Below are positions 15,576 through 60,744 of a stretch of DNA of 64,000 nucleotides, one piece after another. The position numbers and the translations under genes are program-made. The first letter of the stretch is position 1, and every line of letters begins with the position of its first letter. The notes beneath the pieces are model-generated. The model was not told the DNA's origin and searched no databases. It saw only the letters and a list, made by a program, of their open reading frames with translations. The stretch is from assembly GCA_905178155.1 (NCBI GenBank), contig CAJINV010000013.1, positions 1,546,833 through 1,610,832 on the forward strand, read 5' to 3'. The stretch is from Amoebophrya sp. A120 (Eukaryota > Protista > Dinoflagellata).

Positions 15576-15576
15576 T

Positions 15577-18365: not shown

Positions 18366-20002
18366 ATAAGCTGCGGCCTTGTAAGACATGTTGGTGCTCA
18401 GCACTCCTTTACAGTCGACAATAACCGTCGTGCACGACGCAACTACGCACTGGTGATACCCTGTACAGCACGACCACAATCATCGAAACAAAAAGCTGTG
18501 CCAGATTTACAATCTACCTATACCTGGAGACACCGGTCCCGCCCCGCTGATCGATAGAAACGAGAGGAATTGCTCTTCGTGCACCGGCGCGTTGGTATAG
18601 CCGCGTGGAGGAGCCACGGCGATTTCGCCCGAAGCAAGTAGCACATCAGAGGACTGGTGGACGCGACCGGACTTTCCACCACGATGCAGATGGAGTTGAC
18701 TGGCAGCCTTCGCGTCCCCCGCGTCCGGACGATTCTCTGCAGTCGTTGCGTCCGATGTTGAAACACCTTCCCCAAGAAAGCTGCTGCTGCTGCTGGACAC
18801 TCGGTATACACCAGGCACCCCTTTCTTGATTCGGTCGGCGTCAATATCGGCTTGCTTTGCTCGAATATCCTCAGCATCAAGACTTTGACGCACCGCGGTA
18901 ACCCCCTCAGTAGCAATCCGTTGATGCAGCGCGGTCCTCCTTCGCTCCTCGTCTTGACGCCTTTCTTGCAGAGCGGCGTACTGCGGACTTTGCTGATATT
19001 CTTGAACAAGAGTCGCAATTTCGTTTTGGAACGACGCTTGGCTGACCGCAATCGGACAGCCATTAAAAGGGTTCCAGGACTTCGGTGTGCGCGTGCACCG
19101 CGAAAACTCAGAAAGCCCCAGTGTCTCTATGTATGGGAGTGTCAGGATTGAAATCGTCAAAGTTGAAATATTTTGTCTTCATGCTAAACCGACCGAAACC
19201 ACTACACAAATAATCGTTTGTCATGCATAAAACGCAGCCCACAAAGTGCCTGTCTTGCAGAGTAGACAAGTGAGGCAGATTGCGAAAAGCCTGCTGAGGA
19301 GCAGTAGAAATAGAGCTGCTAAAGTAGCACGACAAAAGGCGTCTTCCTTACCCAAACAGCATGACAAACTGGATTTCGGCTCTGCCCAAATTTGTCAGGC
19401 GCCACTTGGAAACTGGGTTACAACTGGCATCCATTTTATGCCATGCCAAATCATTTCAATTTTGTAGATTTCAAACCTGACGCTTCCATACTCTCCCTCC
19501 AAAACGTACAGCATTCACTGCTCGCTGGCCTGGCGTAGTCGCCATTGTAGTGGCAGCCACCTTGGTCGCGAGGCAAGCCGTACCTTTCGTAGCTTAGGTG
19601 AGCGCAGGTAAAAAAGACTCCTGGTCCTCCTCCTTCATACGTCTGCATCAAGCCGGAGGTGCTGCTCACGTCGGCGCTAGACTGGATGGGTATCGCGTCG
19701 ACAACAGGCAACCGGTCATCTGGTTCGACCTCCGCGACGTCGGTCTCCTCCGTTTCCTCCACCAGCTCCGCGGTGTCCAGAACGTCCACGTCCAGATCGT
19801 CACTGCCCATGCCGCCGGCTAGGCCGTTGAGAGTCATGATCTGCCTCTCCCCCGGCGCAGACAGTTGCAGCTTGGATGTGAGCCCCTCGGCCTCGGCACG
19901 ACCTGAAAGGTGCACATACTTTTTTTGCCGCATGCGCATGCCTATGCGTGCTATTAGCACAACCGACACTGTTATCTCAATACTCCTGCTGGTGGTCAGC
20001 AC
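18366..20002 (-). CDS. Cys-rich tandem-array protein, copy 2 (IE 19128-19490; candidate GT-AG intron 18461-18523)
   Basis: IE removal joins ECCTFWRE-TLGLSEFSRCTRTPKSW...CPI, which aligns with copy 1. Confidence 0.6.
19128..19490. mobile_element. Introner element, family B
   Basis: TIR with an extra TATG at the left end; flanks GTCTC/CTCTC; reverse orientation relative to the 7535 copy. Confidence 0.8.
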
Positions 20003-20008
20003 TCCTTT

Positions 20009-21345
20009 TCAGTCGAAAATAATCATCGTGCACGACGCAAGAACTAGGCACTGGTGATACCCTGTACAGGAAGAGCAGCAGCAGCAACACGATCATCGAA
20101 ACAAGAAAAACAGACTGTGCCAGATTTACAACCTATACCTGCAGACACCGTTCCCGCCCCGCTGATCGATAGCAACGAGAAGTGTCCCCCGGATGTCGCG
20201 TCGTGGACCGCAGCGCCAGTGTCGCTGGCTGGAGCCGCCGCCTCGGCGTCGCCAAATGTTGCAGCAGATGCGAGGCTCTTGAAGCCATCCTCGGTACGCC
20301 CGGAAATGTCGCCACGGCTAAGTAGTTGCTGCCCAGTAGATCCCGTCGCGTCTGTGGCTGCAACCTGTGGTGCGGCATCGCCGTCCACGAGAAAACTGCT
20401 CTGTGCGCCCCCACGGAGCCGGGGCGGGTTGGCACGGGGGGGGGGATTGGCACGGGGCTCTTGGACGAGGCCGTCACCACGTCGAGACGGCGCCCTCGCT
20501 TGCATTTCCTCGAAGTCGAACAAGACCCCTTGTTGTAAATCTTCCTGCGATCCATCCGGCGCGACGGGACGTCCCAGAACTAGGTCCTCCTGGTGTGTGC
20601 CAGCGAAGCAGCCATCCCTTACTGTACAGTACGTGGCTACTCGGCGTATTGGTCGTCTTTGCAGGCCTCGCCGTTGTGCGTCGGCCACCGCTGCATTCAG
20701 AACGTCTGCGGAGTCCAGCGTGTAATCTGAGCCGCCGTCAACTATCGAGTACTGCCATCGGAAATCACGGAAGTCTGTAACTGGGATCGGACAGTGGCGC
20801 AAAACTTGCCACGTCGACGGCGCCCTCTTGCAGGTTGGTTTCGAGTACACATCTTTCGGCTCCACCACTACACAACACTGCGCGCTCGCCATCCTCTGCA
20901 GGTTGCCTTCGTAGTAACAACCGCCGTCGGGTTTTCCAAATTTCATGTACCAACAGGTAAACAAAAATTTCGGTTCAGTGGTCTGCATCAAGCCGGAGGA
21001 CGCGTCGGCGCTAGGCTGGACCACGTTCTTCGTGACGACATCAACAGGCAGCCGCTCATCTCGCTCGACTTCGATCTCCGCGCCGTCAAGAAAGTCCGTT
21101 CCTTCCATTTCCTCCACCAGCTCCGCGGTGTCCAGAACGTCCACGTCCAGACTCGTCGGCTCCTGCTTGGCGGTGTTGACTCGTCCCAGCGACCGCGGAG
21201 GGAGCTGCCCATGCGCAGCCGCACGTGTAGGCGAGTGCTCGCCCTGTTGTACCGCCCGCACCGCCTTTGGTTCTCCCGCTGCGACTTGGTGGTCTTCACC
21301 GGCTTCGTTTCGGGTCGTCGGACCAGTTTGTGCGGAAGCGAACAC
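20009..21345 (-). CDS. Cys-rich tandem-array protein, copy 1 (candidate GT-AG intron 20062-20138)
   Basis: Shares LDVDVLDTAELVEE, FTC..GGC..CC..C.R.P..W..CPI and the SISGAG tail with copy 2; 5' end uncertain. Confidence 0.6.
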
Positions 21346-22852: not shown

Positions 22853-25330
22853 TCATCCCCTGTCGTGCGTGCACTGCGCCAGCACCAGCCCTTGCTTTTC
22901 CTCCCCCATGATGCCGCGTGCCCGGGTTTTCAAGTAGCACATTTTCGCGCCACTCGCGAACACGAAGGTATCGCACTCCTTATCGGCCTGGCAGGCGGCC
23001 TGGTACTATGCTGTGCATAAGTTAGTGCTATCGCGCTTGTAGACGTAGACGTAGTCGTACGAATTGCAATCATGCATGACAAATCGAAATCTGCTTCCTG
23101 TACCTGTTCCGTACCTGAATCTGCATGACACAGCGCTCTGATTTTCCTGCTTTAGCAGAATATTTGTAGCGGCACTTTATTACATCACTAATGCGATACT
23201 CATAGGTGCACTTGTGCATTGCATAGACAACTCAGAATGTCGATTTTCGACGTTGCACCACCAGAACCGGTGATGTCGTAGCCCTTCACATCCATGTTGT
23301 TCGTCTGCTTCCAGTATGCATTGAAAATATGTTGCCAGGGTCTGGAGAAAGATTGATGCGAGATTCATTTGTAATACTCGGCTGCAGAAGTGCTCGACAG
23401 GTTGGTCTCTTATGCAAAAAAGCTCCTTGTCATGCGCAATATCCAAGTAACAAACACATCCATGAGCACCTGCAGAACTCTTGTTCACACTCATCTGCGT
23501 ATTACTGACATCTGCTTTTTAACATTGACAAAATAACACCACAACAAGTTTCTAGACCCAGCCTGACGTTTTTGCAGTTGATACGAACTCTTTGCAATTT
23601 GGCACCTTCCAGCTCGTCTGCTTTAGATGTTGACTGAACTGCTTATCCCAGGAAAAAACTGTTGAGTCTCAAGCCTGTGCAGACTTAGCAAAACAAAATC
23701 GCAGCCCTCCACGAAGCACAAAGAAAATCTGTCATGCGTCAGGCCCAAGACAATGAGAAAAAGGCGCTTTTCTTGCCTGTCGATTAAAACAAAAAACTGC
23801 ATCGAGGAGTTTCTGTGTTACAGGTGGAAACTGGGACAGTTTTTTTCTCGCGATACTGCTGCACGCCGTTATACAAGATCGGATACCGCATATCGCGAGA
23901 AAAAACTGTTTCACGGTGAAGTTGGAAATGCAGAAAATATTTCGCGCAGTATTGTTTGCCTCGCTACGCATGCAAGATAATGCATCTTCAGCAGTGATTC
24001 ATGGCAAATGTTCTGTCGTATAGAACAAACTGAAACTCGGAAAGATCAGAAGATGCAAAACATGCAAATTCCTTTCCAGTGAAACACACTTTTCGTACGA
24101 TACTGCAGGTACAGTGGCGCGTCGCTGTTCGTGCGGATCTGCTTCGAGTGCCATGAGAGCCCGAACTGGAAGGACGTGCTGGCGGCCTCGGAGAAAATCA
24201 GCTGGTGACTGGACGTATCCATTGCAAATAGATACATCTGGGCGGTCTGGGACAATCTCATGCTCAGCTAAGTGCAAGACTTGCAAGTCTGTCATGTGCG
24301 TTGTGCAAGCCCTACACTTCTCTTTCATGCAGAAACGCACTTTTTTATGCAAAACAACTATACCCGTAGCAGCTCAAAAATTTGTCATGCTTGGCCCTGA
24401 GCTAAAGTCAAACTGTCGTCCTGGCGATTTTTTATCCAGCATCACAACTTTCCCGAGAACCCAGACCTTTTTGCAGTGGATAGGACGACCCCGCGTCCTG
24501 GAGGGACAGGGCGTGGAATATCAAAAGGAAAAATGCCCCCTCCCCATATCGAAGTGGAAATCTGTGACGCAGGATTTGTGTACGCACATCGGATTTGCCT
24601 TGGAGTGGAGGACGGCAGGCCCATAGCATGCCAATGCGGAGAGGTTGTGGCCTAGGCACTTAGCATGCGGAACGTCTATGCTGTAGGACCAACGGCATTA
24701 CAAACCGCCTGCATAATGGGGCGGCGCCTATGCCGTTGCTTTCTTGCAAGACAAACACGATTTGGGGTCACGAATCAGCATCACAAATTCTGTGAGGCGT
24801 TTCTTTTCGTTATGGGGAGGGGGGATTTTTCCGTTTGATATGGAACCCGAAGTAACGGCTCAGCCGGGACGTGAACGCGTTCCACACGGTGTCGTACGCC
24901 ATCCCGCTCGGCCCCTCGGCGTTCTATGCATTGCAAATTTGTCTGGGTCTGGAAGAATGCAAACTTGTGATGCGCATTTTAGAGAATAGAAAAATCTCTC
25001 ATGCATAGGTAGTAAAAGCTGCCCACGTTATGTCACCAAAGTGGGGGATTTGTCATGCGGATTAAGCAATGCGGAAGCTTCTGGAAATCTGTGATGCTAG
25101 GGCTTCCATGACAGGCATTTTGTGCCATGCAAAAACAGCATGACAAAAATCTGCATTCTTCCAGACCCAGACATATTTGCAGTTCATACGTTCAGGTTGC
25201 TCGCAAAAAGGAAGCTCCCGCACTTCTCGACCAGGAAGTCTAGGCCGCTGAGCCACCGGAGTACCTCCGGCGCGCGTCCGTAGACAAACGCCGCACTGCC
25301 ACCGGTAATGGCGTATCCAAAGTAAAATAA
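22853..25330 (-). CDS. Protein with C-terminal PAN/Apple domain, split by 7 IEs; likely upstream signal-peptide exon at 25594-25965
   Basis: Manual splice gives one open frame ending C...NMDVKGYDI...LSCQAACQADKECDTFVFASGAKMCYLK...GLVLAQC, the six-Cys Apple pattern. Confidence 0.75.
23007..23225. mobile_element. Introner element, degenerate
   Basis: TATGC..TGCA TIR; direct repeat decayed (GGTAC/GACAA) but element+5 restores ILSC-QAAC. Confidence 0.7.
23315..23583. mobile_element. Introner element, family A-like
   Basis: Degenerate TIR (GGGTCTGGA/TCTAGACCC); no direct repeat; element+5 keeps the frame. Confidence 0.7.
23644..23855. mobile_element. Introner element, family D (TATCGCGAGAAAAAACTGT)
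   Basis: 212 bp; perfect CTGCT direct repeat; frame restored. Confidence 0.85.
23891..24102. mobile_element. Introner element, family D
   Basis: 212 bp; flanks CCGCA/CTGCA; frame restored. Confidence 0.8.
24216..24482. mobile_element. Introner element, family A-like
   Basis: TATCCA.TGCAAA TIR; perfect GGACG direct repeat. Confidence 0.85.
24519..24840. mobile_element. Introner element, family C
   Basis: 322 bp; perfect TGGAA direct repeat; homologous to 62114-62435. Confidence 0.9.
24925..25188. mobile_element. Introner element, family A
   Basis: TIR; perfect CGTTC direct repeat. Confidence 0.9.
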
Positions 25331-26748
25331 AAACAGGTACCCGCCCCGCCTATACTTGTTGCCATGCGATTGCACATGCCCAGAAAGTGGTCTCGCCCCA
25401 TGCGGAACTTTATGTTACTGCGAAGTATTTCTACTTACCGTCATCATCGAAATTCAAATTCGTCATGCGCTAAGTACTTAAACTTAATCACGATCATAGC
25501 CGCATGCGCATCGATTTTTGAATTTGATATACCTCCTGCATTAACTTACTGCGGCGCTATCGTCCCGAAGTTATCTTGTTGCGCCGCAGCAAATCACCAG
25601 AATTGATTCTCTTCTTGACAACTATCGGGAGGAGGTGAGTACGTTTTTACAGAGGATACAGCGGTCGTCAGGTTTTCGTCATCGCCGACAGCCATTGGTG
25701 CCTCACCGCGGGTGGCGTGCTCCACTCTGGTCGCTGGTCCGGACGCTGCTTCGCCGCGAACTGACCCTGCGGTCTGGTGAGCTGCATGTCCTTGTCCTGC
25801 CAGAGGGTCTAATATATTGCCCGTCGCACTCGCTGTTGAGCCGCTATATCTTGTAACGTGCGAGAGTTCATGTTGATGTGTCCAGGCAGCACCTTGCGCA
25901 CTTGCATACAGAAGTTTACGCAGAAGTCGTAGGATTATGAGAATGTCCCACAAGTGCGGCGGCACGCGACTCTGAGACTCGCCTTCCGCACTTCCGGGAC
26001 ATTGAGAAGCAGGACGAAAACTTCAGATTCCACAAAAAAACAGCCACGTAATACTAGAACTTTTGTCCTGCTAGCGCAACCTCCGGTCTTCAGGTCATAA
26101 GGACTCTCGTTCCGCTACATCCTTATCGCGTTCTTCACACGTCAACATCACAAAATTGCAATGCATAGCAGTGTCGTGGAAAACATGCAGCGCATCACCC
26201 CCGGGGTCGGCTTCCGCAAGACACCGAGCAAACCGGTGCCTCCTGACGTCAAAAACGAAGCTGCTGTCGGCCAGAACGGCACTGGACGCGGCCGCGGCGC
26301 TTTTGCTCTTTGCAGTGGACTGCTCCGTATTTGCACTACTGCTCTTGCTCGGTGAATTTGAAACCACAGGTGGCGGCTTTCCAACTTTTGACGCACCGTT
26401 GAGCGCGTTTGCGGTCACCGTGCTCCAAAGAAACAAGTTATCTTCGTAGTCGGAATAGGAGAAGGTATGGAAAGTTTGAAATAAATCAGTTCCGACAACA
26501 TCATCCATCGCAAAGTAGAGAAAGAAAACAGTAACTGGTGAAACAAATGCTGATACAAAAAAGTATTCCTCCGGTCACAGACCTCTTGCACTGACAACTT
26601 ACACCAAGTTTAGAACTCGTGAAGTGGTGCTGTGCCGCTGGGATGTGCGCAGACATCGACACTACTGTGCTTCTCATGATTTTTCTGCGGTCCTACAAAT
26701 GCAAATCACGCATACAAAAATTTCCACTTTGACACTCTAAAACAATGT

Positions 26749-31613: not shown

Positions 31614-34506
31614 TCAATAACCAGCGTCACTGGAGGCGCTGCTGCTGGCCCCACTCCCATACACCGTGGACTTGGGTGATTCCTCCTCGCCAAGATTGAG
31701 GCCGCCATGCTGCTATGCATTGCAAAAGCATATCGTACTAGTACAAAAACAAATTGCATGACAAATTTTTATCAGAAAAAAAAATGCAAGATGCAATGCT
31801 GATTCAGCTATACAAACTAGATTTGTCACGCTGCACTGCAAAATTAGTACGAGTACGATACTTTTGCAGAGCGTAGCTGCACCGGAAAGGTGATTTTGCT
31901 GGGGTGTCGGTACTTCTTCTTGACCACAATGCTCTTCCCCAGCGCGCTCCTCTCGTCTTCGGACGCACTGGTATCCCCATCGGCCGTTTCGAAGATGATT
32001 TTCTGCTCCTCCGCGGTCAGCACGAGTTCCTCCTCCTGTGGATCGACTTTGTCCACTTGGCGGCCGAAGGCGGTGAAAAGGAAGCACCCGGCGCTGACGA
32101 TAAAAAACGCCAAAATTTGCCACGAGGTCACCGCGTTGTGAAAGATCAGGACGGACAGCAGGGCGGTCGCCGGCGTCTTCAGGTTTCCCACCACCATCAT
32201 GGTGGTGGGCCCCACCCGGCCGATCAACAAAAAAGCCAGCAGGTTGAACAGTGCGGCGAAGGACGCGGACCCGGCAAGCCACAGGGCCCCAGCGGCTGGC
32301 AGCTTCGTCATTTCCACCCAGGGCCGGCCCCCCTCGTAGTGGGAGGACGCCAGGAGGAACAGGACGAGGGACAACGGCGAGGAGTAGAACAGCAGGGTAA
32401 TCGGGTCCAGCTTCTCGTGCTCATTCGTTCCGTCAATCAACATGCCCTGCAGCGCCGCTTTCAACGCACGCAGGAAGGCGGAACTCAGGCTCACAATCAC
32501 GCCGACCTGTGAATGGGTTGAGAAAAAAATTCTGGACGCCTTCTTCATTCGCGCAAGCAGATGATGCTGAGGCAACAAAGAAGTAGTCGTACTCAAATTC
32601 ACAAACAACTTTCATCAGGCGCAGGCCTGCTTCAAGACAAAGGCACAACACAACCTCGTCAATTTCGCCGAAGTATAATCTCTGTCGTAGCTAGTAGTTA
32701 TACCGGAATTTATTTTATTGGTGAAAAATAAGGACAAGAGCTCTACAGCTAGTGTCGAAGTACATTCATTAGTATGAACAACCCAATCATGATCGTTCAT
32801 AAGTACCCAAACGAACGTTTTCTCCGCGGACTGTTCGCCCCAGGCCGCCAAAGCACCGCCGGCGCACACCGGAATGAGGGCCAAGTAGGCCATATCAAAT
32901 GTAAAAATGTCCGGGTCTGGAAGAATGCCAGACTTGTCATGCAGGTTTTTCATGACCCATGAGGTCTGGTATGTAGGACATAGCATGACAAATTCTGTGC
33001 GAGTCCGAGTTCTTTCATGCCTATCCTGCATGAGAAACTGCCTCTCGGTTAGGTCAAAAGTGGACAGCTTTTGGCAATCATGCAACACAGATTTCTGCAC
33101 GATCCAGATTTAGCATGACAAGTTGCTTTGTTCCAGACCCAGACATTTTTGCATTTGATAGGCCACCAAGTTGTAGCGCTTGGACATCAAACTGACGGCG
33201 CAGAGGACGGACCAAATGGGGGTGGTGTTCTGCAGCATTTGGTGCAGCGACGGGTACAGGTACAGCAGCGCCACGTTGCCGCAAGCAATCGACAAGGCAC
33301 CCAGCACGCAGAACGGCGCAACGCGGGCGGACGTCCGGAAGTACGCATACGCTTTCTCGCCGAAGGTGAGCGGTAGTTGATGTTCGGCGGAAGAGGAGGT
33401 GGAGGACCGGGCCGTGTTACTATCTTGGTCCGTGATCGCCGCCCGTCGCTCTCTCGCTGCCGGCAGCTTGTCTTTCTGGAACCACGCCACGCAGATGGCG
33501 GACAGGACAAAGGAAAACAACATGTGCACAGTATCGAGCGCAAATACCTCGTCTGGAAGATCTGGAATACTGCCATGCTTGTACTGCTTGTGCTTGTCCG
33601 GCTTTGGCATGACAATGATTTTCACGAACACAATTTCAATGGCAAGATGCATATTGCGGAAAAGCGGGAATTTCGTTTCACGACTTGCCGTGCGCAACAG
33701 GCAGCTAAAAAATGACTCAGCGGAATTGCATTAGACAATTTTAATTACGGTTTTTACTTCTTGTCGTGTAGATATTTCTATGCCTATTCGCAGCCGCGCG
33801 TGCAAAAAGAAGTAGCATCACACCCTTCCAGACCCAGCGGTACTATTTGCGAGGCATACATGGATGTGACAAACAAGGGGTACTTGAACCCATGGGAAAC
33901 GTACAGGATTTTGACGGACGTGGACATGAACATGGACACGAGGAAATTCGCCAGCACCACCAGAAGGGTCGTCCGCAGGTCATAACTCTGATGGTTGTAC
34001 GTGTATTCGAATGAGGACCATCGTACCGCACTGGTGGGAGCAGCCCCCGTGCCCGCCGACGCAGCTGCTGCTCCCGCTGCTGCAACATTAATATCCTGCT
34101 CGTGGTTGATACTTCTGTAGTTATCCGCGTCCTCGGGGCTGCCACTGCTGTTGCCTTCGTCCCTGCTCATCTGCTCGCCCAAGTGGCGAATTCTATTTCT
34201 GCTCGTACTTGTGGTGTTTCCCGAATGGACAAGTTGTGCACGACTTCTGTCGAGATCTAGATCCTTCGCAGCGCTATGGTGCATGTAGAATTCATGGGGT
34301 TGAGCAGCAGCAGTACTGTTTGCACTTCCACCGCGGCTCTTGTTCGGAGTACCAGGGGGTGCCCTGTGGTCCTCCTCCCGCTCGCTCGGAGAGGTTGACA
34401 ACACACCCCCACCAGCATTGATCACACCGACCGAGATCTTGCGCTTCGAACCCTGCACCGGGGTTGCCAGGTGCAGATTCATCGCACTCCCGCGGCCCTG
34501 AAACAT
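31614..34506 (-). CDS. Triose-phosphate/nucleotide-sugar transporter family (TPT, SLC35E-like), ~604 aa; 3 IEs plus one GT-AG intron (~32507-32812)
   Basis: KILYVSHGFKYPLFVTSM-HM, GNVALLYLYPSLHQML..TTPIW, GGALAAWGE, LLFYSSP and VGPTTMMVVGNLK are typical TPT motifs across multiple TMs. Confidence 0.9.
31714..31875. mobile_element. Introner element, short distinct family (162 bp)
   Basis: TATGCATTGCAAAAG..TATCGTACT TIR; perfect GCTGC direct repeat. Confidence 0.85.
32893..33160. mobile_element. Introner element, family A
   Basis: TIR; perfect GGCCA direct repeat; joins YNLVA-YLALIP. Confidence 0.92.
33532..33858. mobile_element. Introner element, family A-like, divergent
   Basis: Weak TIR; flanks CACAG/CATGG; element+5 restores conserved VTSM-HMLF. 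Confidence 0.75.
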
Positions 34507-35747: not shown

Positions 35748-38457
35748 TTACACGACCCGCCCGACCGCAACATCACCGAGTTCCTGTGCGACTTTTTGTT
35801 GCGTGCCGACACTCGCGCCGCGGTAGGAGGCGGGGATCAGGGCGTTGGCAAAGTCCATGTCGTTGTTCACTTGTTTGGTGTGGATAAATTGGGCCATCTT
35901 CATATTACAATGAAAAATGCCCCCACCCCCGAACTTGGGAGCATTTGTATTGCAAACCTTTCCAAATGAAACATTCGCCCTCTTGCATCTATCAGCATCA
36001 CAGGATTTCAATCGCGAATAGCTAAAATTTGTATTGCAAAAGACCCCAGCAAGAGCGGCACTTTTCATGCAAGCGATGCGATACACGCCTACATTCTGCA
36101 TCAGAAAGATTCATACTCCTTTCATGTATGACAAAAAATTTTCATTTGGGAACTTCGCATCACAAATTTTTGCAATTTAGGGGTGGGGGGCACTTTTCAC
36201 TGTAATACTTCATCGCCTCCTTTAGTGTCAGCTTGTACCGATCCTCCTCGTCAAACTCCTTGTACAGGAGGTACCTGTTGTGAAAGTGGTGATACTCTTT
36301 TGCCTATTGTTTCCATGGTACCCATGAAGATGCAGGCAGCAGCAGGAAAACGAAAAACGAAACGCAAATCAAAACTATAACCGCCTAGGAGGACATCAAG
36401 CAATCAAAACATTAACCTGTTTGCTCTAGTACCACTGAGTATTTGTCAGCGCAGGGATTGGCACGTCGAAGTATGAAAAGAAAAGGAGACAAGAAATACT
36501 AAGTCACCCAACACTGTAGTTTTTCACTGCCGTTGTCTGAGTTCACAACAAGAGCTGAAATTATACAGATGTTGACGAGAGTTGTGGAACGAGTCTCAAG
36601 CTTCTCCCACGCGGCTGCACGGCAGATATCGCCGATGAATAATCAGTGCTGGTGCCTACTTACAAACAAGACCTATACACAAGACCGTCACAATTACTGT
36701 GATCGGAACTGATAAATGCAAACTGACTCGCAGCAGCAACTTTTTTCGGGTGTGGGTGTCGGTCCTTGTGCTGGTTTGCCTCTAGTACATATGCATCAAA
36801 CACCAGTTTGGCGAAGGCCGTGATCTCCCCCTTATTCCACGTGATATTGCCGTCTCTATCGCTGTCATTCTGTTTTGTATTTGAAAACAACAATTTGCAT
36901 CACGACACACACATCTAGATAGGAGCTACCTACGCAGATGCACAAGATTAGAGGGAGGTGAGAAACAGAAAAGCTTCTATTTCGTCCGAACAGTAGATCA
37001 AGGTTGTTGCGTATTATATGTTTGGAGCGAATACCGCCTGAAACTATCAAATGTAAGAATGTCTGTGTCTGGATGAGTACAAGGTTTGTCATGCATATTT
37101 TCCATGAGGCATGATGTCTGTGATGCATGCCTAGCATCACAGATTCTGCGAGAGCTTTCTGATGCTCCTACCGCATGAGAAATCCCCTCTTTGCGTAGCA
37201 ACAAGTGGACCTCTTTTCCTGTTCATGCAATATATACAGGTTTTTTTTAGCATCCAAATGCAGCATCACAAGTTGCACCCTTCCAGACCCAGACATTTTT
37301 ACATTCCATAGAAACAATCTGGTGACTATGTCAGTGTCGCCGGTGCTCTTCTCCCAATCATACATGGACTTTCCGCTCAAGGTGCCCCTCGTCGCCTCGT
37401 ATCAAATGTAAAAATGTCTGGGTCTGGAAGAATGCAACTTGTGATGCTGAATTTGGATTCCGAAAAATGTGTATTGCATGATGAGCAGCAAAGGCAATGC
37501 AATTTTTGCTACGCGGAGAGGGCATTTGTCATGCGGAACAGGCATCGCGAAGCATTCAAAAAATCTGTGACGCTAGGGCATGCTTCACAGACATCATGGC
37601 CAATGCAAAACATGCATGACAAGTCTCAGAATCTTCCAGACCCAGACATTTCTACATTTGATACCTCGCTCATCCGTTCCATTTCTGCTGACACCGGCTT
37701 GGACCCTTTAGACCCTTTTGTTATCTGTTCGTGCAACGGGATCAAGTGGTGCTGCGACGACATCTGCGAGATCGAGGTGCGAATCGTGTGGTGCGCGTGG
37801 TGGTCGGATATCCCCTGCGCCTTTTCCAGCGACGCCCGAAATTGCTATCCCGTGGAAATAAAGCAAAAGGAAAAACAAAACGCGTAAGAACCCGCGGGAG
37901 TCTTATGTATGATCGACCCCAGTGTATAGCCAACGACCAAAGTCTTGACGACTACTTCTTGTGGAAGCTGCAAATCCAGAAGACGATTGGCATGGCAATG
38001 CCAAGTGCCCCGCCGAGAATTATTGTTCTTGTTATAGTAATTCCTCTCTCTTTCCAGCACGTAGCTGCATCAGATTGTTTTCCCTCGCGGCCATGCCGAC
38101 GCCGTGTATCGTGTGTAGGTTCGCGTCGATCTCGTCATCCCCCGTGTTGATGGTGTGCGGCTGCGGGTGCAGGTTCGTGAGGAGATTTGGCGCGTTTCCG
38201 GCGTTTGTTGTGGCGGAAGTGAGCTTGACAATGGGTGGCAGGTGGGCAGAAGGGTCATCGTTATCGTTCACCAGCGAAAACCTCGTCGGCAGGGAATTCA
38301 GCTGGATCGGCTTGGGCTTGTAGTCAGTGAAATTCGTTTGCACCGCGTACGCAACTTGCAGACGAGGGTGCTGGATCACCTGGGAACGGGAAGGAAAAAG
38401 AAAGTGTTTTCCATGATTACACGGAGGTTGTGCAAGAACTACGGGAAAAAAAGTCAT
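35748..38457 (-). CDS. Multi-exon EF-hand-like protein (3 IEs plus canonical introns; boundaries approximate)
   Basis: Spliced RLFQA-NDSDRDGNITWNKGE (EF-loop-like) and LYKEFDEEDRYKLTLKEAMK-MAQF; IE joins are in frame. Confidence 0.55.
35903..36207. mobile_element. Introner element, family C
   Basis: TATTACA.TGAAAA.TGCCCCC TIR; perfect CTTCA direct repeat. Confidence 0.9.
37045..37310. mobile_element. Introner element, family A
   Basis: TIR; perfect GAAAC direct repeat. Confidence 0.9.
37400..37663. mobile_element. Introner element, family A (opposite orientation to the 37045 and 41732 copies)
   Basis: TIR; perfect CCTCG direct repeat; can be spliced as GT-AG. Confidence 0.92.
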
Positions 38458-39293
38458 ACAAATTTAAGTAAAATTCATGATCTGGGTCACACTGTACAGG
38501 ATCATGCTGACAACATACAATGAAAAACACAGTCCTCGCACACTACAGCTAACAGGTACTGGCTGCATCAGTTGCGGCAGGTCACCGAAGAGACTCGGGG
38601 TTTCGTCTGTCATTTTTTCTTGTTGTGAAGCTATAATGTAACTCAGATTCTAGATAATATCGGTATCCGTATGATCATACAGGTTTTTCTACTTCTTCAC
38701 GGAAACTCCTAAAACTGATGTACTAGTAATTCACTCTTCCACAATCACCAGATTGCGAAAGAACCAAAACCAGCACGTGAATCGGCCAAGCAATTCGCCA
38801 AGCAGTAGAACGGAAGAAACTTTAGCAGAGACCTCTCTTGCTTCGCTCAAGCAGGCGGAAGGACGTAACAAGCGAAAGCCGCCTCAGGAGCTGTGCCGCC
38901 AGTGCATAAACAATATCCAATGGCAACGGGACTGCTTCCGCATGTTTTCTTTGATCTACATAAGTAACGAAGACACACGACAGTACGCAAGACCTGGAGT
39001 GATGATTCGAACACGGAAAATGAAGATATGGTCGCCAGACACCATTTTCTCCTGCATCAGATGCACAGAGCGGGCGAATCCTACACATAATGCCTCGCGT
39101 AGAAAGGAAATGTAGACAAGGACAACTTGGTCGTGATACAAACAGTTGTAGGGGTAGGTCGAAGGGGGCACAAATACCTCTGCCTAGGAGGCCCAAAAGA
39201 CCGTTTGTTTTTTCCACTTTTTGGCGTCGAGTTTGTTCATCCTATGTATGTTGTAGTTGAAGTCCGTGTTTGTTTGTTGTCGTCAATACGCCA

Positions 39294-39706
39294 CTACATT
39301 CTCCTCTCTGGTGGCTTGCCGCAAGGTTGTATCATGGCCTGGATCTGGTTGTACCGCACTCTTGCTATGCTTTCGTTTTCTATCACCGAAAACAAAGCGC
39401 ACCGGTTAAACCTGATGGTGTAAGAAAGAGTGTAATTGACTTGTTTCACATCGAAAGAGTTTCACTTTCGTTTTTTTCGAACGCGCAAGCAAAGAAAGTG
39501 CATGTTACTACATCAACTAAAAAAAAAACTTACCTTGATGCGTGGCTGGCATGCGAGTCTCGGTGCACCGTGGTCATCCATTCCCATTTCGTGGTGTCTG
39601 GCCCCCCGCACCCGGTGTACTTACTCTGGATGTGCTCCATCTGGGCATGGAGGTTGAACTTCTTCAAGCCCATGTCCACATTCTGCTGTGCAACGTGGAC
39701 CGACAT
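39294..39706 (-). CDS. SF3B5: Splicing factor 3B subunit 5 (SF3b10/Ysf3), 96 aa; exons 39534-39706 and 39294-39411
   Basis: FNLHAQMEHIQSKYTGCGGPDTTKWEWMTTVHRDS...IENESIARVRYN..AMIQPCGKPP matches the SF3B5 family as I know it; canonical GTAAGT...CAG intron of 122 bp. Confidence 0.93.
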
Positions 39707-40887
39707 TTTCGGCTGTTCCCTTGTGGCTTAGCTTTAATAGAGTTGTAGGTACGCAGAATTTGATAGAAATAACCGAGTCAGAAGACTCTAGCTATTTTTC
39801 GTAGAGATAAAAAGTAATTGCGATTCTGGTCTATTCTTTGGGTATAGTACAAATTCAATCAACAGGCCACTGAAACAATCTATCAACGCGCGGCGTAAAA
39901 TGTTTTTCGTTTCCATACAGCTCACTTGCGACTCGCTTTTTGAACTTTCAACTTCCTGGTGGTGGACGGGTAATCTTATTCTTCAAGCATGATGATCGCT
40001 GCAAACATTACGAAGGAAACATATCTAAATCTATGGTTCTTTGATACAAAAAAGAAGGAACCTGGGCGGCGCAGGCCCGTGGCCGAAAAAATAGCGATTT
40101 TGAACTTTTCGAATGAAAGTAGGAGCTCTGCAATTTGTCTAGTATTCCTTCCTTGAAGAAATGTATTTCACGATCGCGATACATTTGGCCTTGAGCGTGG
40201 AAAGAGTTGCGTCAGAGCAGTCAACTTTCGACCCTTGGTTTGAGTATAGAACGAGGATCTGCGAAATCAAGAAGGTCGATCTGTCCTGAACTGCAGAATG
40301 TCGATGTTGTTGCAGCGCCGCATGCCAAATTGAAATTCTCGATCGATCGAAACTGGTTTTAATGATGGTTTTTCTGTAGTAGTACATCCAGGCAAGTAGA
40401 CGACGAACCAGAAGCAATCATGGCACCAGAAAGAACTCGTCGTCCCCGTCAGAAATATCTGCCATAAGGACAAAGAATTTGCTTCGCACTTCAATTCTTC
40501 ATCGTACAATCATGATCATGCGCAGAAGTTCCAGTTGTCGCACCAAGAATTATGGAAAACTATACTTACTCTTGTTACAGCCACTACTTTATAAATATGC
40601 CACCATCAATGTCGCCATGTCGCTTTTGTATTTTTGTCGCGTGTTCATCTTGCTCAGGGCGTCACCTGTTAAAAGTGAGGCTGTTGAGCTCTTTTCCACC
40701 TGATATATGTTGCGTCTTCTACACACCACAAGCCGGTCCCTTGAAGAGTAAAACGTCAATGGCATTTTGCCCTCTCTACTAAGTACTTGCTGGTCTCTTG
40801 TCCACTACTATATGGTCTATATTCACGGCACTACTTTTTATTCACCGCTGCTGAATCATTGTAAGAGACCTCCATGCATGCGGCTTT

Positions 40888-43800
40888 TTAATCATCCTCG
40901 TCGTGCTTGTCGTGGTCCTTTTTGGTATCAATACCAGTTCTAGTTGTGGTTCTTTTTGCTCTACTTCTACTTGTCGGCCCGGAGCCGGAAGCAGAATTTC
41001 CCTTACTGCTCTTGTCTTGACGCCCCTTCATCTTGCTGCTCTGTTCCACAGCTGCTCCACCGTTGTCCTCGGCCGAGTGACCTCCTCCTCGTCCTGGACG
41101 GTTTTGGTTTTTCATCACATGAGGCTTTTTCGACGAAGTACCTCCTGAAGTGGACTTCTCCTCCGCCAAAACGTTGTCGGTCTGGTCAGGTAACGTGATT
41201 TCTTCTTCGGTACAACTTTCGCGAATTTTCCTCTGAATGTCCTCCACCGTCAAGTCGTCCCGAATCGCGTCGATCACCCGGTCCACGGTGTACTTCGCAT
41301 TCGGAAAGGCCTTGTCGTTCCGCAACTTGTAGAGGCAAAACCCGTCTCGCGCTTGGTCGAACCGGCACTCCCAGACGCTACCATAGGACGAGGTGGTGTC
41401 ACCGGGACACGAAGAACTGCCGGAGGAAGGCTTGTTGTTTTTGCGCTGATCAACAAGAACCTCGACCTCGACGTCAGGCCCAGTTTTTGTTTTATTTTGT
41501 TCCGCAGTGTAAGCTCTAGTGCGTTGCTTGCAGAAAAGGTTTTCCATCATCAGCCTGGCCGCAACGTCCCACTGCCGCAGCTTCTTGTGCGTAAAACCTG
41601 AACCAGAAGCGAGGGAAGGACAGCTGTTTTGCTCTTCACGATTTGCAGTGCTGTTCATATTTCTTTTTCTTTCCTCCTCCTCTGCCCAGACCAAGTCGAA
41701 GACTTTCGCAAGCACCTCCTCTTTGGTGGACTATCAAATGTAAAAATGTCTGGGTCTGGAAGATTCTGACACTTGTCATGCACGTTTTGCATGAGCCCTG
41801 ATGTCTGTGATGCACGCCCTAGCATCACAGATTTTTTGAGAGCTTCTTGATGCCTATTCCGCATGACAAATGCCCTCTCCGCGTAGCAAGAATTACATTC
41901 CCTTATGGTACTCATGCAATACAGATTTTTTTTGGAATCCAAATCCAGCGTCACAAGTTGCATTCTTCCAGACCCAGACATTTGTACATTTGATATGGAC
42001 TTGCAGGTTCCAAACTTCACAAACTCATTGTTGTCCACGATGAAAAGGTCGAGGGAAAGAAGGGACGAAGCGGGTGTAATCATTTCTTCGTCTGCATGGA
42101 GATTTGCTCCTCCTTCTTCCATTTTCAGCATCTGATTGATCAGGTCCGCATCGGAGGAGGATGACGACGTTTTGACAGCGCTAGTGGAGGTTCGCCGACT
42201 CCGTCTGGTTCTTTTAGGACTTCTGGTCACTCCTTCGCTCCTCCTTTGCCGTCGCTTTCGTCGCGAAGATGCTTTTCCGTCCTTCTCCGCCGCTTTATTT
42301 TGCGTTTGCTCGCTGTTGCTGCTGTTCTTTTCTCGTTCATGTCGCTTGCGCTTGCGGGCTAAATGACAATGCCCTACATCTTCCAGCTGGTCTTGGTGAA
42401 AATCCAGAGTGGAGCCCTCATCTGCGTTTATTTCTGCCATTTCGTCGTCGTTTTCGAGGTCGTGACTGTCATCTTCGAGAACTACATCATCATCCCTATC
42501 CAGGTGGTCCGAGTTGCTCCTATCGCCCGAAAGAGACCACGACCTTGATTTCTTTTCCACATCACGATCTTCTGCACTATCATCAGATTCGTCTTCCACG
42601 TCGTCACAATCCACATCCACTTCCTCTTCAGCCGAAGTGTTGCAAGAAAAGTCCTCCGCTTCGTCCTCCAAATCGGTTTGTAGATCGCTTATCTCTTCTT
42701 CATCACTTTCCTGCGCGGACGAAAACCGCACCAGAAAATCGACCGTGTTCAGCTCCATGGGTTTCCACTTGAAAGCCGTCTTGACTGTTTGGCACCGGTA
42801 CGGTTCGTGCAAGGGGGTGAACACAAACCCGTCGTTCTCGTGGTTGGCCCGTTTCGTCTCCTCCCGACACTCGTCGAAATACTTCATCTTGTAAAACTGC
42901 TTGCACCGGACGTGCAGGAGGTTTTCCAACGGGTGTTTGCACGTCTTCATGTTCACGTCGTCGTCATCCAGAGGGAGTAGTACTTCATCTCCCTTTATTT
43001 GCCGTACACGCAGCGCAGCCCCGCTGGAAAAATTCTCAACAGCAAGCTCCTGGTCATTGCACACTTCTCCCACACCATGTTCCAAAACGTCTTGCTCGAC
43101 TTGAGTTCCAGTTTCCGCCCCGCACGATGAACTGCAGCCTCTTGCTGTTCTCGCCCCGAACGGTGATTTCATATCTGCAGAGGGAGCGGTCGCGGTTGTG
43201 CCCTTGTTGATATTATTTTTGCCCGCACACATCCGCAGAATGGCGGCGCTCCACTCGTGCTCAGCCTTGAGGATGACGGGCAGCGTGTGCTGGCGGTTGG
43301 CCAGGTGCGTGTTGAATCCCGTGTTGCAGCGTCGCGAGGCCGCGAGGAGCGCGTTTGTGTCTTCCAGTGTTCCGTTCAAATCCGAGAACACAATGCTCCA
43401 CACCGGCTGATACGTGGCGGCGGCCTTCAACCGGAAATCCAGGGGCAGGTAGGAAACATCCTTCCCGTCCTGCACCACGCAGTCAAAAGCTAGGAAGAAG
43501 AGTTTATTTTTTCTCTGCTCCCCCGAACCCGTGGAGGCGGAAGCATCTGGGATTCTCTCGACACACAGCTCCCCATCCAGGAGCCAATCCGGCTGGAAGC
43601 AGTACCGGAGAAACTGGTTTAGTCCTCCTCCGCCTGCACGACGGCGGCCCCTGCCATCCTTTTCCCCCGCCCGGTCGTCGACCTCGTGCACGACATCAGC
43701 AGCCAAGATCGTCGAAGCAGTACTGGGCCCCGTGATATCGTGCTGCTGGTCCCCCGCGTCAGTTGTGCTCGTCCGCTTCTTGCACGAAGTTGTACTAGAC

Positions 43801-44668
43801 CCGCCCTGGTTATGGTGCAGCTTCATGCGGTGCTCGTCGTGGTTCTTGTCGTACCACCTGATCTCCTCTATCTTGCATTTTCGGTCGATCAGAAACACTC
43901 GCGCGTTCTTCTCCAAGAGAAAGTAGCGGTCCCCGTCCGTCTTTTTATGGAAGCGTCAGGTTTGAAATCGTCAAAGTTGAAATACTTTGTAATGCATAAA
44001 ATGCATGACCCGAGGTACGTGTGTTGCAGAGCAGGCAAGTGAGGCCGATTGTAAGCCTGTTTGGGGTTACAGCTCGAGCTGCTAAAGTAGCATGAGAAAA
44101 TCGCTCTTCTTTGCCTAAACAGCACGACAGACTGGATTTGGGTGCTCGCGAAATTTGTCATGCGCCACTTGGAAACTGAGTCTCCAACTGGCATCCCATC
44201 GATTTTGTGCATCACAAATTTTTCGATTTTGTCAATTTCGATTCTGACACATCCATACTTTTCACAAACCGCGTAGTCCTCGACTTGGAACGCAAAGGGT
44301 TTGGTTTCGGGTTCCCCGTCCCGGTTGTACTCCTTTATCGGGACGGTGTCGAACAAGAATTCCTTGGTCAGCGACACGGGCTGCATCCCCGGGAACTGGA
44401 GCCGCTGGTCCCCGTACCGCACGTAGTCGCAAATTAGCTGCAGCAGGAAGCGCCGTTCCTCGGGGCACGTCACCAGGCTCAGGTAGCCGTCCAGCGTTTG
44501 CTTCTTAAACGCCTCCAGAGAGGCCGTTGCGGTGGAGACGACGACCTGGGGAGGTCCGGACGGCGCAAGAACTACGCCGTGGGACTTCGATTGCAGTTCT
44601 CCTCCACCAGGGGGGCATGGCATGGCTGAGGGGTGCTGCATAGTACTCGCGCTCTGCCGCCCGGTCAT
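40888..44668 (-). CDS. mRNA capping enzyme guanylyltransferase (Ceg1-like, ~1064 aa, long low-complexity insertions); 2 IEs
   Basis: FPGMQPVSL, motif I VCEK-TDG, III LLDGE, IIIa FLAFD, IV DGFVF, V FKWKP, VI RNDKAFPN. Confidence 0.92.
41732..41995. mobile_element. Introner element, family A
   Basis: TIR; perfect TGGAC direct repeat; joins CKS-TKEEV. Confidence 0.92.
43946..44257. mobile_element. Introner element, family B, inside the KxDG motif
   Basis: TIR; perfect CTTTT direct repeat. Confidence 0.92.
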
Positions 44669-47049
44669 TCGCAAATAGCCATGAGTCTACTTGCGGCTAA
44701 AGGTTGAGAGCAGTAGAGGCTTAGGCTCTACCAACTAGTTCACATGGGACCACATCGGTGAGCATCACCTAGCCGCAATTGAAAACTTTTCACGTTCTAC
44801 TGGGTAGATCACACTTTTTTTCACTTGAATAAAATAGTACGTGTCTTATATGATTGAGTAGACATGTCCAGTAGCGAGCTCGCGATGTCCTTGGAGCAAA
44901 AAAATGAAATTAGTACTCGATGGGCAATACTTCCCCTAAATGTCTAAACCTGAATCTATCAGAATTATGCTCCTCTTCTGTTAAAGTCATTTTCAAAGAA
45001 GCATGTAGTAGTAGAAGTGATGTGCTGTCAAGCGTATCAAGATCCCAGCGACTCACTTTTTTTTTTCTGCCTTTTCTCAGTCTTCTCAAAAGACTGGGAA
45101 AATCGCTTTGATCCTGACGCACATTCCGTGTCGTTCATTGCTATTTCAACATAGGAGATTTAGTCACACGAGATCGCCGTAGTCGTGATCGTGCCATAAA
45201 TTGTTTGTCGTTTTTCCAGATCCATCGATTTTTGTGTGGAGCTGCAGATCGGACCAAGTAGAAGTTGCACGCACGACATCTTCAAGGATCATTCTTTACT
45301 GTGGTTCGCCCAATAAACTGACTCAGAAATGGAGATTGAGGATCGCTCTGCGTCGTTCTTCTTTTCGCATCCGAGGAAGGCATGCCAACGTCGACGCGAT
45401 CCAGGCGAAATTTTACCGGAGCCAAAACCGTAGTCACATGCTGGAGATCGCAACAAGGAGCTATTAGCTGATCGAGCCTTTTTTTCATTGTCAAACAACC
45501 AACCGACGGCGAGAGTAAATCTAAGACAACGATCCGTTGTTTCCTGCACTAAAAAGGAGACCACTTTGGATCTCTCACAAAATGTGTACAAAAACCAGGA
45601 TTTTTGAAGCCGAAGATAAATGAACGCTCGCGCTCGGCACGGCCACGTGATAAAAAGACGGAAACGGAACATCTTTCAAAAAATTTCAAAACTTTTTGGT
45701 CAACAGCTGTAGTAGTCGTTCGAAGATTTTTTCGATGAAGAAATTCACCACATTCCTACTTTTTTTCCTATGCGAAATCTACTTCTTGCAATCGCTTTGC
45801 GATTATATATTTCTTTTCGACAATGTGTATCGGTTTCTTCCGGCACGCAACCCAGCTTCATCGATTTTCGCGCGCCTTGGTGGAATTCTAACTATGTAAG
45901 TACATCCAAAATAATCGTCATTTTTGTACAGGTGCTGGAGAGGGAAACTTTGCAAACGTCCCTGTGGGGATCAGGACTGGTATTCAACTCATTGCAGTGA
46001 GAATGACATCGTGATGCTCGCAAATTAGTTGATTCTCCTCCTGCATTGTAGGACGACGAGAGAACCTACTTCTGAATTTATTAGAAAAAAGCCTGCCCGA
46101 CGCTCTGCGTTTTTAATTATTGTTCTGAAAACCTCCCCTGCCCCCAGAGCTCTTCGAAGTGTTTGCATTGCAAACTTTCCGCATGGAAACCCCTTGTAGG
46201 ATTCCATTCCGAGGAGGCCGCCGACACAGATGTATCGCCACTTACGGTCGAAAATTTGTCATGCTGATAGCCAATGCACGAGAACGGACGCGGCAGATGT
46301 TTCCATGCATAATAGAAGGGGATCTGTGCATGACAAAGATTTACTCCCCATTCTGGGGACATAGGAGTATTCTCCACGTTGATAATCAGCGGCATCTCTT
46401 CTATTTTTAGAAGTGCGTAGAGTTTTAAAAAAAGCTGAAAGCTCAAAGAATTAATACTACGGCGAAGTCATTGCTATATCTAGAGATGACAACAAGCACA
46501 CCCTGCATACCAGACTTTGAACTCATTGCAGTCTTCTCTTGAAGTCCTCTTTGTTGCGAACTGTTTATCATTATGTGCAAGGGTGGGTTACCTGTAGCAC
46601 GTGTTTCTTCGGAAACAAGTTAACTTAAACTTTTTTGTGTTACATCATTGACTATGGTTACTAGTAGCCAGCGGTAGGGTAATATTTATACATATAATTC
46701 GACAAAATCCAATCACAACAAATTCTCGGAACAAATGTTTTTGCTAGAATTAGGAAAAAAGTTGAACGAATAACGTAGGTCTCTACCACCAACCTTAAAC
46801 TTTTGTGAATTTCTCAAGCAGCTTCTTCGTACAGCGATGAAGCTTTGTTCTTTGACTCCCGTTTCCTTGTTTCCTCCTCCGCACAATGAAAGAAGGGATA
46901 CAGAAGTATAAACGTATCCTTTTTTTCACTTCTTCAAGAACGCGTGGAACAACCGATTGAATACTGCCCGTCCCGGCGTCACCTCGAAAGTTGCCGTCTT
47001 GGAGGACCCCGGTTTTACGCTGAAGCTCGCTTTTGCTACTTTTCGCCCG

Positions 47050-59013: not shown

Positions 59014-60744
59014 TCAGTAGACAATTCCATTCACTTTCTTCCACGTCCTAAATACCTGTGCGCACTGGTCTTTCAAAATGTTCATTTTCGGCTGGTTTCG
59101 CGTAAGGTCCTTGCTTGCCTCCTCGTGGCAATTGTGTTTCCGGTGATGGTGGTGACGGTGCTTTTTTGACGAGGGGTCCTGTTCTTCGGCGCTATTGCTT
59201 ATTTGCTTCACCTCAGACGAGATAGCAGTGGTGGACTGTGGCGCGGCGCTAGTAGATGATGAAACTCCGGGGATATTAACATTATCTTCACCAAGAACGG
59301 ACATTTGGACTGCTCCGAGTTCAAGAACTGGAGAAGCCGGGCGAGCCTGTTCGTCTTCTGCTCTGCCGTGCTCTACAACGGCTGCAGCAGTTGTAGTCGT
59401 ACTACTCCCCGTAGTTGCAGAGGGCGTGGCAAGAGCTTGTTTCGTTTCCACAGTAAAATTAGCAGGCTTTTGTTCTGTGCTACTCGCCCCCGCCCCCAAG
59501 CCTTCGTACAGCTTGACCCTTCCCACGTTTGCCCAACAGAGCGCCGCAATGCTCATTTCGTTCAGGTACATCTCGCTCCTCTCGAAGGCGCAGTGCAGCA
59601 CGCTCGTTTCCTTCGGCAAGTGGTGCTTCTGCAACTTCGCACAGGCCAGCTCGATGCAAGCCGTTATCGGGGAGATGGTTGGGTCCTCGCCCTTATGTTC
59701 ATCCAGAGATGTTGTTGAGCCGACCACCTGCAGCGCTTCCTCTGCCCGAAACTCCTGCCCGTCAACAATCAACACGACCGCCGGGGTCCCGACGCTACTT
59801 CGCATTTGTGCCGGATCTAGCGACGGGTGCGTACTGGAGTGGTGGTGGTGTTTTTTAGCGTTAATATTCTTATCTTCGTTTGCATAATTTAAATTCTTCC
59901 CTTGGAGCTCCTCGTTGCTTTTCACGATTTCGATGGTCAAAAACTTGCCCCGAAACTTGCTGTCCTGCTTTTTAGAAGGAGCTGGGGATGCGGTTGAATT
60001 TTTGGTACTAGTAGCACCATCAGCCTCAGCTTTAGTAGTAGTGTCCACTTCTGGCGATGCGGCTGCTTCTGATTTATTTTCGACGGCATTCACTCCAAGA
60101 CGACTCGATGACCCCTTATCGTTGCTGGTCGGGCCGCCTTTAATATTCCCTTGCTCCGCTTGTCTTTTATCCAGCCACTTTTGTACCCCGTCCATTTCGT
60201 CGTAGAAAGCCTTGTCGTTGAAGCCGAAAGCCGCAGCGGTGTCTCGGTCCACTCCCACATACACATTGCGAATCCAGGGCGCACGCGCGATCGCCCCGCG
60301 GCACATCGGACACGGTTCCGCGGTGGTGTACAGGTCGTAGGAGGGCGTTTTTGTAGTACTGTTTTTCAAAATTATATCGGGATCAACTACATCCCCGCTG
60401 ACGGCTGAAGTAGTCGGGTTCATGTTATTTGCATCGCCGCACACTATTGGTGAGTCAGCGTCTATTCCCGTCGTAGTTGATGAAAAAATTCGGTTCGCGG
60501 CCACACGCAACGCGTTCATCTCGCCGTGCCGGGTCGGATTGTTTTCCAGCAGTACCGTGTTGTGCTCGCAGGACACCAAGCGATTGGTGCGCCAGTTGAC
60601 AATCGAGCAGCCGAAGGGCCCCCCGTCTTTCGCAACGACCCCGGCGTAGGCACTGGCACAGGCGGCGAGCATCCATGCCTGTTCGGTGTCATTACAGGAG
60701 GCCGTGGCGCTGCCAGCACACGAGGAGAAGCACGGCAGTGGCAT
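59014..60744 (-). CDS. Zn-dependent nucleobase/nucleoside deaminase (GuaD/guanosine deaminase-like) with a degenerate second domain
   Basis: GGPFG, HNTV, PTRHGEMNA (HxE), LYTTAEPCPMC (PCxxC), AFGFND and C-terminal Tyr. Confidence 0.85.
   Translation of the reverse strand: MPLPCFSSCAGSATASCNDTEQAWMLAACASAYAGVVAKDGGPFGCSIVNWRTNRLVSCEHNTVLLENNPTRHGEMNALRVAANRIFSSTTTGIDADSPIVCGDANNMNPTTSAVSGDVVDPDIILKNSTTKTPSYDLYTTAEPCPMCRGAIARAPWIRNVYVGVDRDTAAAFGFNDKAFYDEMDGVQKWLDKRQAEQGNIKGGPTSNDKGSSSRLGVNAVENKSEAAASPEVDTTTKAEADGATSTKNSTASPAPSKKQDSKFRGKFLTIEIVKSNEELQGKNLNYANEDKNINAKKHHHHSSTHPSLDPAQMRSSVGTPAVVLIVDGQEFRAEEALQVVGSTTSLDEHKGEDPTISPITACIELACAKLQKHHLPKETSVLHCAFERSEMYLNEMSIAALCWANVGRVKLYEGLGAGASSTEQKPANFTVETKQALATPSATTGSSTTTTAAAVVEHGRAEDEQARPASPVLELGAVQMSVLGEDNVNIPGVSSSTSAAPQSTTAISSEVKQISNSAEEQDPSSKKHRHHHHRKHNCHEEASKDLTRNQPKMNILKDQCAQVFRTWKKVNGIVY

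Follow-up and report, generated by a model that had tools for sequence, protein, structure and literature searches.

Amoebophrya is a marine parasite of algae, and the window analysed here, 64,000 nucleotides of strain A120 (contig CAJINV010000013.1, positions 1,546,833 to 1,610,832; positions below are those of the window), holds genes whose exons are interrupted by short hairpin elements that are removed from the message. In the passages of the Amoebophrya genome paper available to us (PMC7789003), over 60% of the introns are non-canonical, genes are co-oriented and the mechanism of removal is left open; the introners of A120 and A25 are described there as hairpins of about 240 nt, flanked by direct repeats of 3–5 nt, with a repeat that starts with TAT followed by seven loose bases and at least three As. 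Judged by their sequence, the elements of the window are these published introners of A120, with which they share the TAT start of the repeat, the direct repeats, the hairpin, the division into families, the non-GT-AG ends and a host of the A120 type. The same passages call the splice sites variable and the position of the border unknown, whereas we find a fixed register, and they contain no statement on the orientation of the elements, whereas both orientations occur here. The register is foreshadowed in their description of a direct repeat 'four nucleotides upstream' and in their Table S4, and the figures of PMC7789003 may show part of it. The accessible parts of the literature, including PMC12005148 and PMC11453091, were found to say nothing on element orientation or on a constant cut position in Amoebophrya. 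The elements are already known, and the fixed cut rule appears to be new.

Among the other described systems, as far as the consulted portions of each source go, the nonconventional introns of Euglena (5'-N3CDG...CH'GN5-6|R, PMC12501133) likewise lack GT-AG and have fixed spacers around a complementary motif, the length of which matters. Their code does not apply here, since the spacers measure 3 and 5–6 nt in Euglena as opposed to 1 and 4 nt, and the motifs are CAG/CTG as opposed to TAT/ATA. Euglena also prefers a purine after the cut, whereas all four bases occur in the window, and its spacer code has been tested genetically and is proven, whereas ours was read from sequence and joints. The introners of Polarella and Aureococcus (bioRxiv 10.1101/2020.10.14.339549) likewise create introns in either orientation, and those of class 12 have a 5-nt duplication NNAG|G in the same register as the element at 37400 described below; however, they depend on ordinary splice sites, supplied either by the element or by the duplication, and are without exception biased in orientation, neither of which was found here. 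One large survey of introners allowed copies in opposite orientation, while another required the same orientation. Transposon terminal repeats also serve as intron ends in Fritillaria borealis (bioRxiv 10.1101/2025.08.15.670264; PMC11282704), where AG-AC and AG-AT are the preferred ends and U1 is conserved, in contrast to the window, where the end dinucleotides are free except for T at +2, and to Amoebophrya, where U1 is undetected. Hemistasiid diplonemids (PMC12621601) likewise have paired intron ends, a conserved spliceosome and an open mechanism; their ends are GC-rich, unlike the TA ends here, and the passages seen of that paper hold no repeat families or orientation data.

The window contains at least 24 elements of several families, 150–360 nt long, which start with TAT, finish with ATA and carry terminal inverted repeats of about 30–60 nt. 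They show features of miniature inverted-repeat transposable elements, namely terminal repeats, a flanking duplication of fixed length, absence of coding capacity and occurrence in both orientations. The elements are non-coding hairpin transposons seated in exons, either way round; Rfam returned no matches for them. An earlier note on this DNA had claimed that the element at 37400–37663 is inverted relative to those at 37045–37310 and 41732–41995 (family A), and that at 7535–7841 relative to those at 19128–19490 and 43946–44257 (family B). Pairwise alignment by blastn confirmed both claims. The element at 37400 matches the opposite strand of 41732–41995 with 88.7% identity over 266 nt (E 5.6e-96) and that of 37045–37310 with 77.4% over 265 nt (E 1e-54), while same-strand matches with either copy are limited to the terminal repeats of about 50 nt. 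In family B, 7535–7841 matches the opposite strand of 43946–44257 (79.2% over 313 nt) and of 19217–19490 within the 19128 copy (84.7% over 274 nt). These orientation calls were unchanged when the terminal repeats were removed and the interiors alone were compared. Further inverted pairs in the window are 35903/5333 and 7881/24216. Five of the six copies named in the earlier note have an exact 5-nt duplication, namely GAAAC (37045), CCTCG (37400), TGGAC (41732), CTTTT (43946) and CACAC (7535); that of the 19128 copy has one mismatch (GTCTC/CTCTC). This copy also has a second TATG on its left side (19128–19135) and a 45-nt insertion (19171–19215), a structure that is a natural test case for the outer letters versus the inner stem. 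The interiors of different families (A and B; e.g. 41773–41860) contain a short motif, TTGTCATGC / GCATGACAA, repeated in both directions, possibly transposase-binding sites.

Removal of the elements was assessed in contigs from one sample (runs X1–X3, which we guessed to be RNA) and compared with a DNA-like run, X6. Contigs of X1 skip the element plus 5 nt at 37400 (269 nt; intron 37396–37664, GT..AG by chance of the duplication), 41732 (269 nt; 41728–41996, AT..CC, in the capping enzyme gene) and 43946 (317 nt; 43942–44258, GT..AA), and also at 24519, 24925 (24925–25188; intron 24921–25189, also supported by the public protein P0002) and 35903. They further skip 37045 (intron 37041–37311, minus strand, CT..TT), leaving a 6-nt exon ahead of a GT-AG intron. 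All three runs skip 11458–11719 (267 nt; intron 11454–11720) and 10805–10956. Family A copies of both orientations are thus removed, the reference one (37045, 41732) and the inverted one (37400, 11458, 24925). For family B, removal of 43946 is seen in RNA with a joint depth of 6.6 and 23 letters on the short side; exact removal of the inverted copy 7535 (intron 7531–7842, GT..GT) is supported by the public protein P0003, and that of 19128 is deduced from the reading frame. RNA joints for 7535, 7881, 19128 and 32893 were absent among the matches listed. In total, at least 22 RNA joints were counted in these matches, 15 of element introns and 7 of GT-AG introns only, and public proteins added 9 further element introns, which gives 24. 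For 14 of the 15 element introns with RNA support, no GT-AG register is possible. The earlier note's expectation that neither orientation stays unspliced held, as both are exactly removed, for family A in RNA. At 31714–31875, an element of 162 nt whose duplication is exact, removal plus 5 nt does not give the best reading frame, and no RNA joint was found among the matches listed; the same frame comparison does not discriminate at 51229 and 62114.

The same joints could arise if the elements were cut from DNA, by elimination as in ciliates or as strain polymorphism, so that transcripts copy an empty site. Eliminated sequences resemble the elements in having TA ends with terminal repeats, the RNA nature of X1–X3 is a guess, and the evidence from X6 leaves out the region 37–44 kb. 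However, X6 contigs connect unique flanks with seven elements at the depth of the flanks (22–30), 11458 being among the copies retained in this run, and depth is 0 for the empty-site joints 11451>11719 and 10804>10957. Moreover, the X1–X3 contigs lack GT-AG introns too, and the polarity of the cut follows the gene strand (see below). We therefore consider excision from DNA very improbable.

The minus-strand position of the host genes, another claim of the earlier note, was checked and borne out for the genes that hold elements. It is indicated by the Pfam domains of the capping enzyme, by CT..AC introns in the RNA joints at a depth equal to the 37045 and 37400 joints, by P0003, which spans 7535, and by a minus-strand GT-AG intron in the gene adjoining 19128. 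A perfect duplication hides the position of the cut, and therefore copies with decayed duplications were needed to reveal the register. Read along the transcript, 1 nt separates the 5' cut from the first TA of the element, and 4 nt separate its last TA from the 3' cut. This is the single register allowed for the decayed element introns, all on the minus strand, at RNA joints 10804 (10805–10956, TT..GT), 25309 (25310–25659, GT..CC), 37841 (37842–38064, CT..AA) and 25847 (25848–26168, 3' end ACA-AGAT), and at 23311 (23311–23584, GT..GG), where it is the register allowed by P0002. Six more copies limit the choice and include the rule (36466, 7881, 23891, 23003, 26461 and 29971), and all 24 element introns are compatible with it. 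In the case of 7881–8132 (intron 7877–8133), where one mismatch in the duplication leaves 0 or 1 nt ahead of the repeat as possible cut positions, the rule predicted Glu-Glu-Arg over Glu-Lys-Arg before P0003 was fetched, and P0003 has Glu-Glu-Arg. The joint at 25847, confirmed by the frame and by P0002, is in register with its decayed repeat and passes over an AG at a distance of 2 nt and ATA decoys at 5 and 7 nt, the use of which would break the reading frame.

The mirror register is excluded by nine copies (p=0.004 if orientation is random), all of which lie on one chromosome strand and one of which, 7881, could be confidently assigned a family orientation. The polarity of the cut accordingly goes with the transcript rather than with the element; the earlier note, which proposed a symmetric signal, had overlooked that the cut itself is asymmetric. 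As 1 and 4 nt add up to the 5-nt duplication, the message is restored whatever the letters of the duplication. Table S4 of PMC7789003, to the extent available, agrees with the register. The nine predominant non-canonical sites of A120 all have T at +2 (NT-NN), in rows that total 20% of the A120 introns and may in some cases reflect aligner preference, and the nine of A25, where repeats start with TTA, all start with TT.

Next, we compared the ends of the 24 element introns with ordinary splice signals. T at +2, A at +3 and A at -7 occur in all 24, T at -6 and A at -5 in 23 each, while +1 and the positions -4 to -1 take all four bases. The U2-type combination of a GT/GC start and an AG end is not what they share, with G at +1 in 11/24 and an AG end in 1/24; the U2-type T at +2 and A at +3 are present in 24/24, and all seven canonical introns seen start with GTA. 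An intermediate case is intron 36466 (36468–36788, minus strand, seen in RNA), with a canonical-like GTACTAG start, the same seven letters as in the canonical intron 36270, a non-AG end and weak pairing of the ends. In 149 copies with a perfect duplication, window included, G at +1 was found in 46, an AG end in 17 and both in 5, and any GT/GC-AG register is possible in 10. G and AG are dispensable for removal. The letters common to all families are the TAY start and the AYR end only. In a set of 175 copies, selected for at most one mismatch in the duplication (exact in 149, one mismatch in 26) and for TAT at positions 1–3 by the design of the search, A is found at positions 11, 12 and 13 in 162, 164 and 171 copies, respectively, with family B departing from this A-run. 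The base profiles of the 5' end and of the reverse-complemented 3' end agree over these copies, each orientation shows a U-run before the 3' cut, and 84 of them have a branch-like YTRAY motif at -10 to -6, just before that cut. A universal YTRAY was rejected (only 95/175 copies have one within the last 36 nt), as was an invariant branch A at -5 (29971 has G there). Neither a TATG start nor a GATA end was preferred (27:29), and pairing of +1 with -4, present in 9/14 of the first joints, was at the level of chance in the 149 copies (35 Watson-Crick pairs versus 38.5 expected).

These data bear on the earlier note's view that removal does not depend on a strand-specific internal branch point or pyrimidine tract. 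As both orientations are removed, the interior carries no essential one-strand signal; however, the repeats themselves provide both orientations with a U-run and a YTRAY-like motif, and the check for branch motifs on both strands, which the note had suggested, found this motif with the same letters either way. The signal does lie in the terminal repeat, as had been concluded from orientation, but the further step from orientation to the stem fails: orientation cannot separate a stem from a linear signal, because near-identical repeats give both orientations the same ends. A spliceosome that reads the linear letters of the repeat (an NTAY start, a U-run and an ATA end), the stem being a by-product of the transposon, would therefore act alike on both. 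It is in keeping with the identical end letters of the two orientations, with YTRAY at -10 to -6 in 84/175 copies and with intron 36466, which has 22/26 pyrimidines and almost no stem. On the other hand, TAY and AYR are too few letters to choose ends, family B has neither YTRAY nor the G9/A11–13 motif and is still removed, and 25847 ignores perfect ATA decoys. Pairing also persists in decayed copies, and we regard a purely linear signal as unlikely.

The evidence beyond orientation leans to the stem without settling it. A duplex joining the two ends, as in Euglena (PMC12501133, in the parts seen) but here a prediction only, beats shuffled sequences (p<0.05) in 21/24 element introns compared to 0/7 canonical introns. 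Families with different repeat sequences are removed alike. In eight decayed copies, 3/48 terminal bases are changed versus 25/40 mismatched duplication positions, and pairing reaches p<0.05 in 5/8 and p<=0.14 in 8/8. The complementarity could also be a leftover of transposition. An excess of G-U over A-C mismatches at positions 21–32 (79:47, p=0.006) was not relied on, being one of five bins in copies that are not independent and probably contain gaps.

In canonical splicing, catalysis normally relies on the first G and the last AG of an intron. We give even chances to a removal by the cell's own U1-less spliceosome at the fixed register, with the paired terminal repeats standing in for G and AG. 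As in the GTA introns of this genome, the TA of the repeat would serve as positions +2 and +3 of the 5' splice site, any base being allowed at +1; both ends would be joined and selected by the duplex, in place of U1 and AG; and the invariant A at -7 would be the likely branch point, from which the 3' cut would be counted. A near-complete spliceosome in which U1 was not detected is reported in the available passages of PMC7789003, and in Fritillaria repeat-ended introns are reported, in the portions consulted, to be removed by the U2 spliceosome (bioRxiv 10.1101/2025.08.15.670264; PMC11282704). In Stentor, the branch A is at position 10 of 15-nt introns.

Several observations weigh against this spliceosomal reading. 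End pairing is weak in three removed introns (25847, p=0.11; 26461, p=0.09; 36466, p=0.14), and folding with exon flanks included predicts no outer pair in 36466, 37841 and 25847. Of four changes among the three outermost pairs, three disrupt the pairing, and on the sense strand G-U mismatches are overall not in significant excess of A-C (155:133, p=0.22), a finding in line with linear signals. The presumed splice site and branch A are buried in a duplex that would have to open and is very stable (z -4.9 to -12.1 in young copies), and only 4/7 canonical introns have A at -7. Furthermore, 25847 fits only when its end is read as ACA, an after-the-fact reading, the rule was derived partly from the same joints that support it, and the public proteins may derive from the same RNA sample. 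The spliceosomal reading draws on contig joints and public proteins, and lariats, circles and dependence on the spliceosome lie outside these data.

Alternatively, the cut may be made at the foot of the stem, with a 3-nt 3' overhang left behind, by a separate nuclease and ligase that are guided by structure, or by a second splicing machinery of the sort proposed for Euglena; the match of TA with the canonical start would then be coincidental. G and AG are both dispensable, the duplexes are strong, and removal is clean beside the 6-nt exon at 37045; in the sources as far as seen, the Euglena introns have similarly fixed spacers, 3 nt before and 5–6 nt after the paired motif, and are reported in a review to leave as circles without lariats. 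However, of the six registers possible within the duplication, only the one used places TA at +2 and +3, as in 7/7 canonical introns, removal also occurs in weakly paired copies, and 36466 shares its first seven letters with the canonical intron 36270. We consider such a separate machine possible but doubtful.

Whichever machinery acts, we think it fairly probable that one universal code, N|TA...ATA-NNNN|, holds for the non-canonical introns of Amoebophrya, with a hairpin ruler replacing G, AG and U1. Any such transposon would then be an instant and perfect intron in any exon, either way round, and the code would be a second, independent hairpin-and-spacer code beside that of Euglena, in an alveolate. 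With a fixed register, 'no clear signature' becomes a testable rule for about 43,000 introns (65% of 66,565); the register further points to a candidate branch A that could be mapped in lariats, and accounts for the way in which these transposons could fill exons at no protein cost. It would also mend gene models, such as the capping enzyme entry that lacks its catalytic motif.

To address orientation beyond the window, copies were collected elsewhere. An exact 31-nt repeat pattern identified 130 loci, all of them contigs of one assembly, with copies up to 83–95% identical to families A, C and D of the window and 80–91% identical for family B and 24519; none of these loci had an orthologous flank. 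They yielded 188 distinct elements with flanks, 158 of which were given a gene strand by a codon model trained on the window, whose calls agree in 88/96 within-locus pairs. In these DNA-only loci, in which young copies of family A are over-represented, the orientation of family A relative to the gene showed no bias (41:34, p=0.49), and the smaller families gave 17:8, 8:3, 1:6, 1:2 and 1:0, none of them significant.

Three host genes, all on the minus strand, were delimited. The gene for the mRNA capping enzyme (guanylyltransferase; 40891–44686) is defined by Pfam domains, frame and the public protein P0001. Its frame 41658–43955 carries PF01331, and PF03919 is located in the following exon. 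Element 43946 interrupts the EKTDG motif, and its removal restores EKTDG; once both elements of the gene are out, the frame counts 1070 codons. P0001 equals residues 380–1070 of the spliced frame (43232–44686) and, judged from this alignment, is a truncated gene model without the KTDG catalytic motif that is split by the element. Public proteins define the other two genes, that of P0003 (3008–8731) with four element introns (7881, 7535, 5333 and 3238) and that of P0002 (22856–30318) with ten. P0001–P0003, each the single hit of its protein search and labelled Amoebophrya sp. A120, match the window residue for residue after removal of the elements, and the P0003 model was probably guided by transcripts.

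Very short exons are found next to elements. The 6-nt micro-exon at 37035–37040 (minus strand, from the RNA joints) lies between element 37045 and the canonical intron 36870–37034, and exons of 27–39 nt separate elements at 23857–23886, 24484–24514 and 7843–7876; in X6, spacers of 25–38 nt separate neighbouring elements elsewhere in the genome. Raw-read runs X10–X12, searched with 20 kb, gave 2, 2 and 1 partial reads. They bear the same species label and match short pieces (37073–37739 and 41075–42408), none of them of exons, and perhaps come from another strain that shares the repeat. Further minus-strand frames resemble an EamA/nucleotide-sugar transporter (31847–32611) and a cytidine deaminase (59017–60783), and a short gene at 39533–39709, with the canonical intron 39412–39533, has a translation that we take to resemble splicing factor SF3B5. 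A 3-kb GT-AG intron on the minus strand (15500–18523) is full of several tandem-repeat arrays, and its flanking exons look, by eye, like 19790–20170. Finally, a 30-nt tandem array at 63475–64000 reaches the end of the window.

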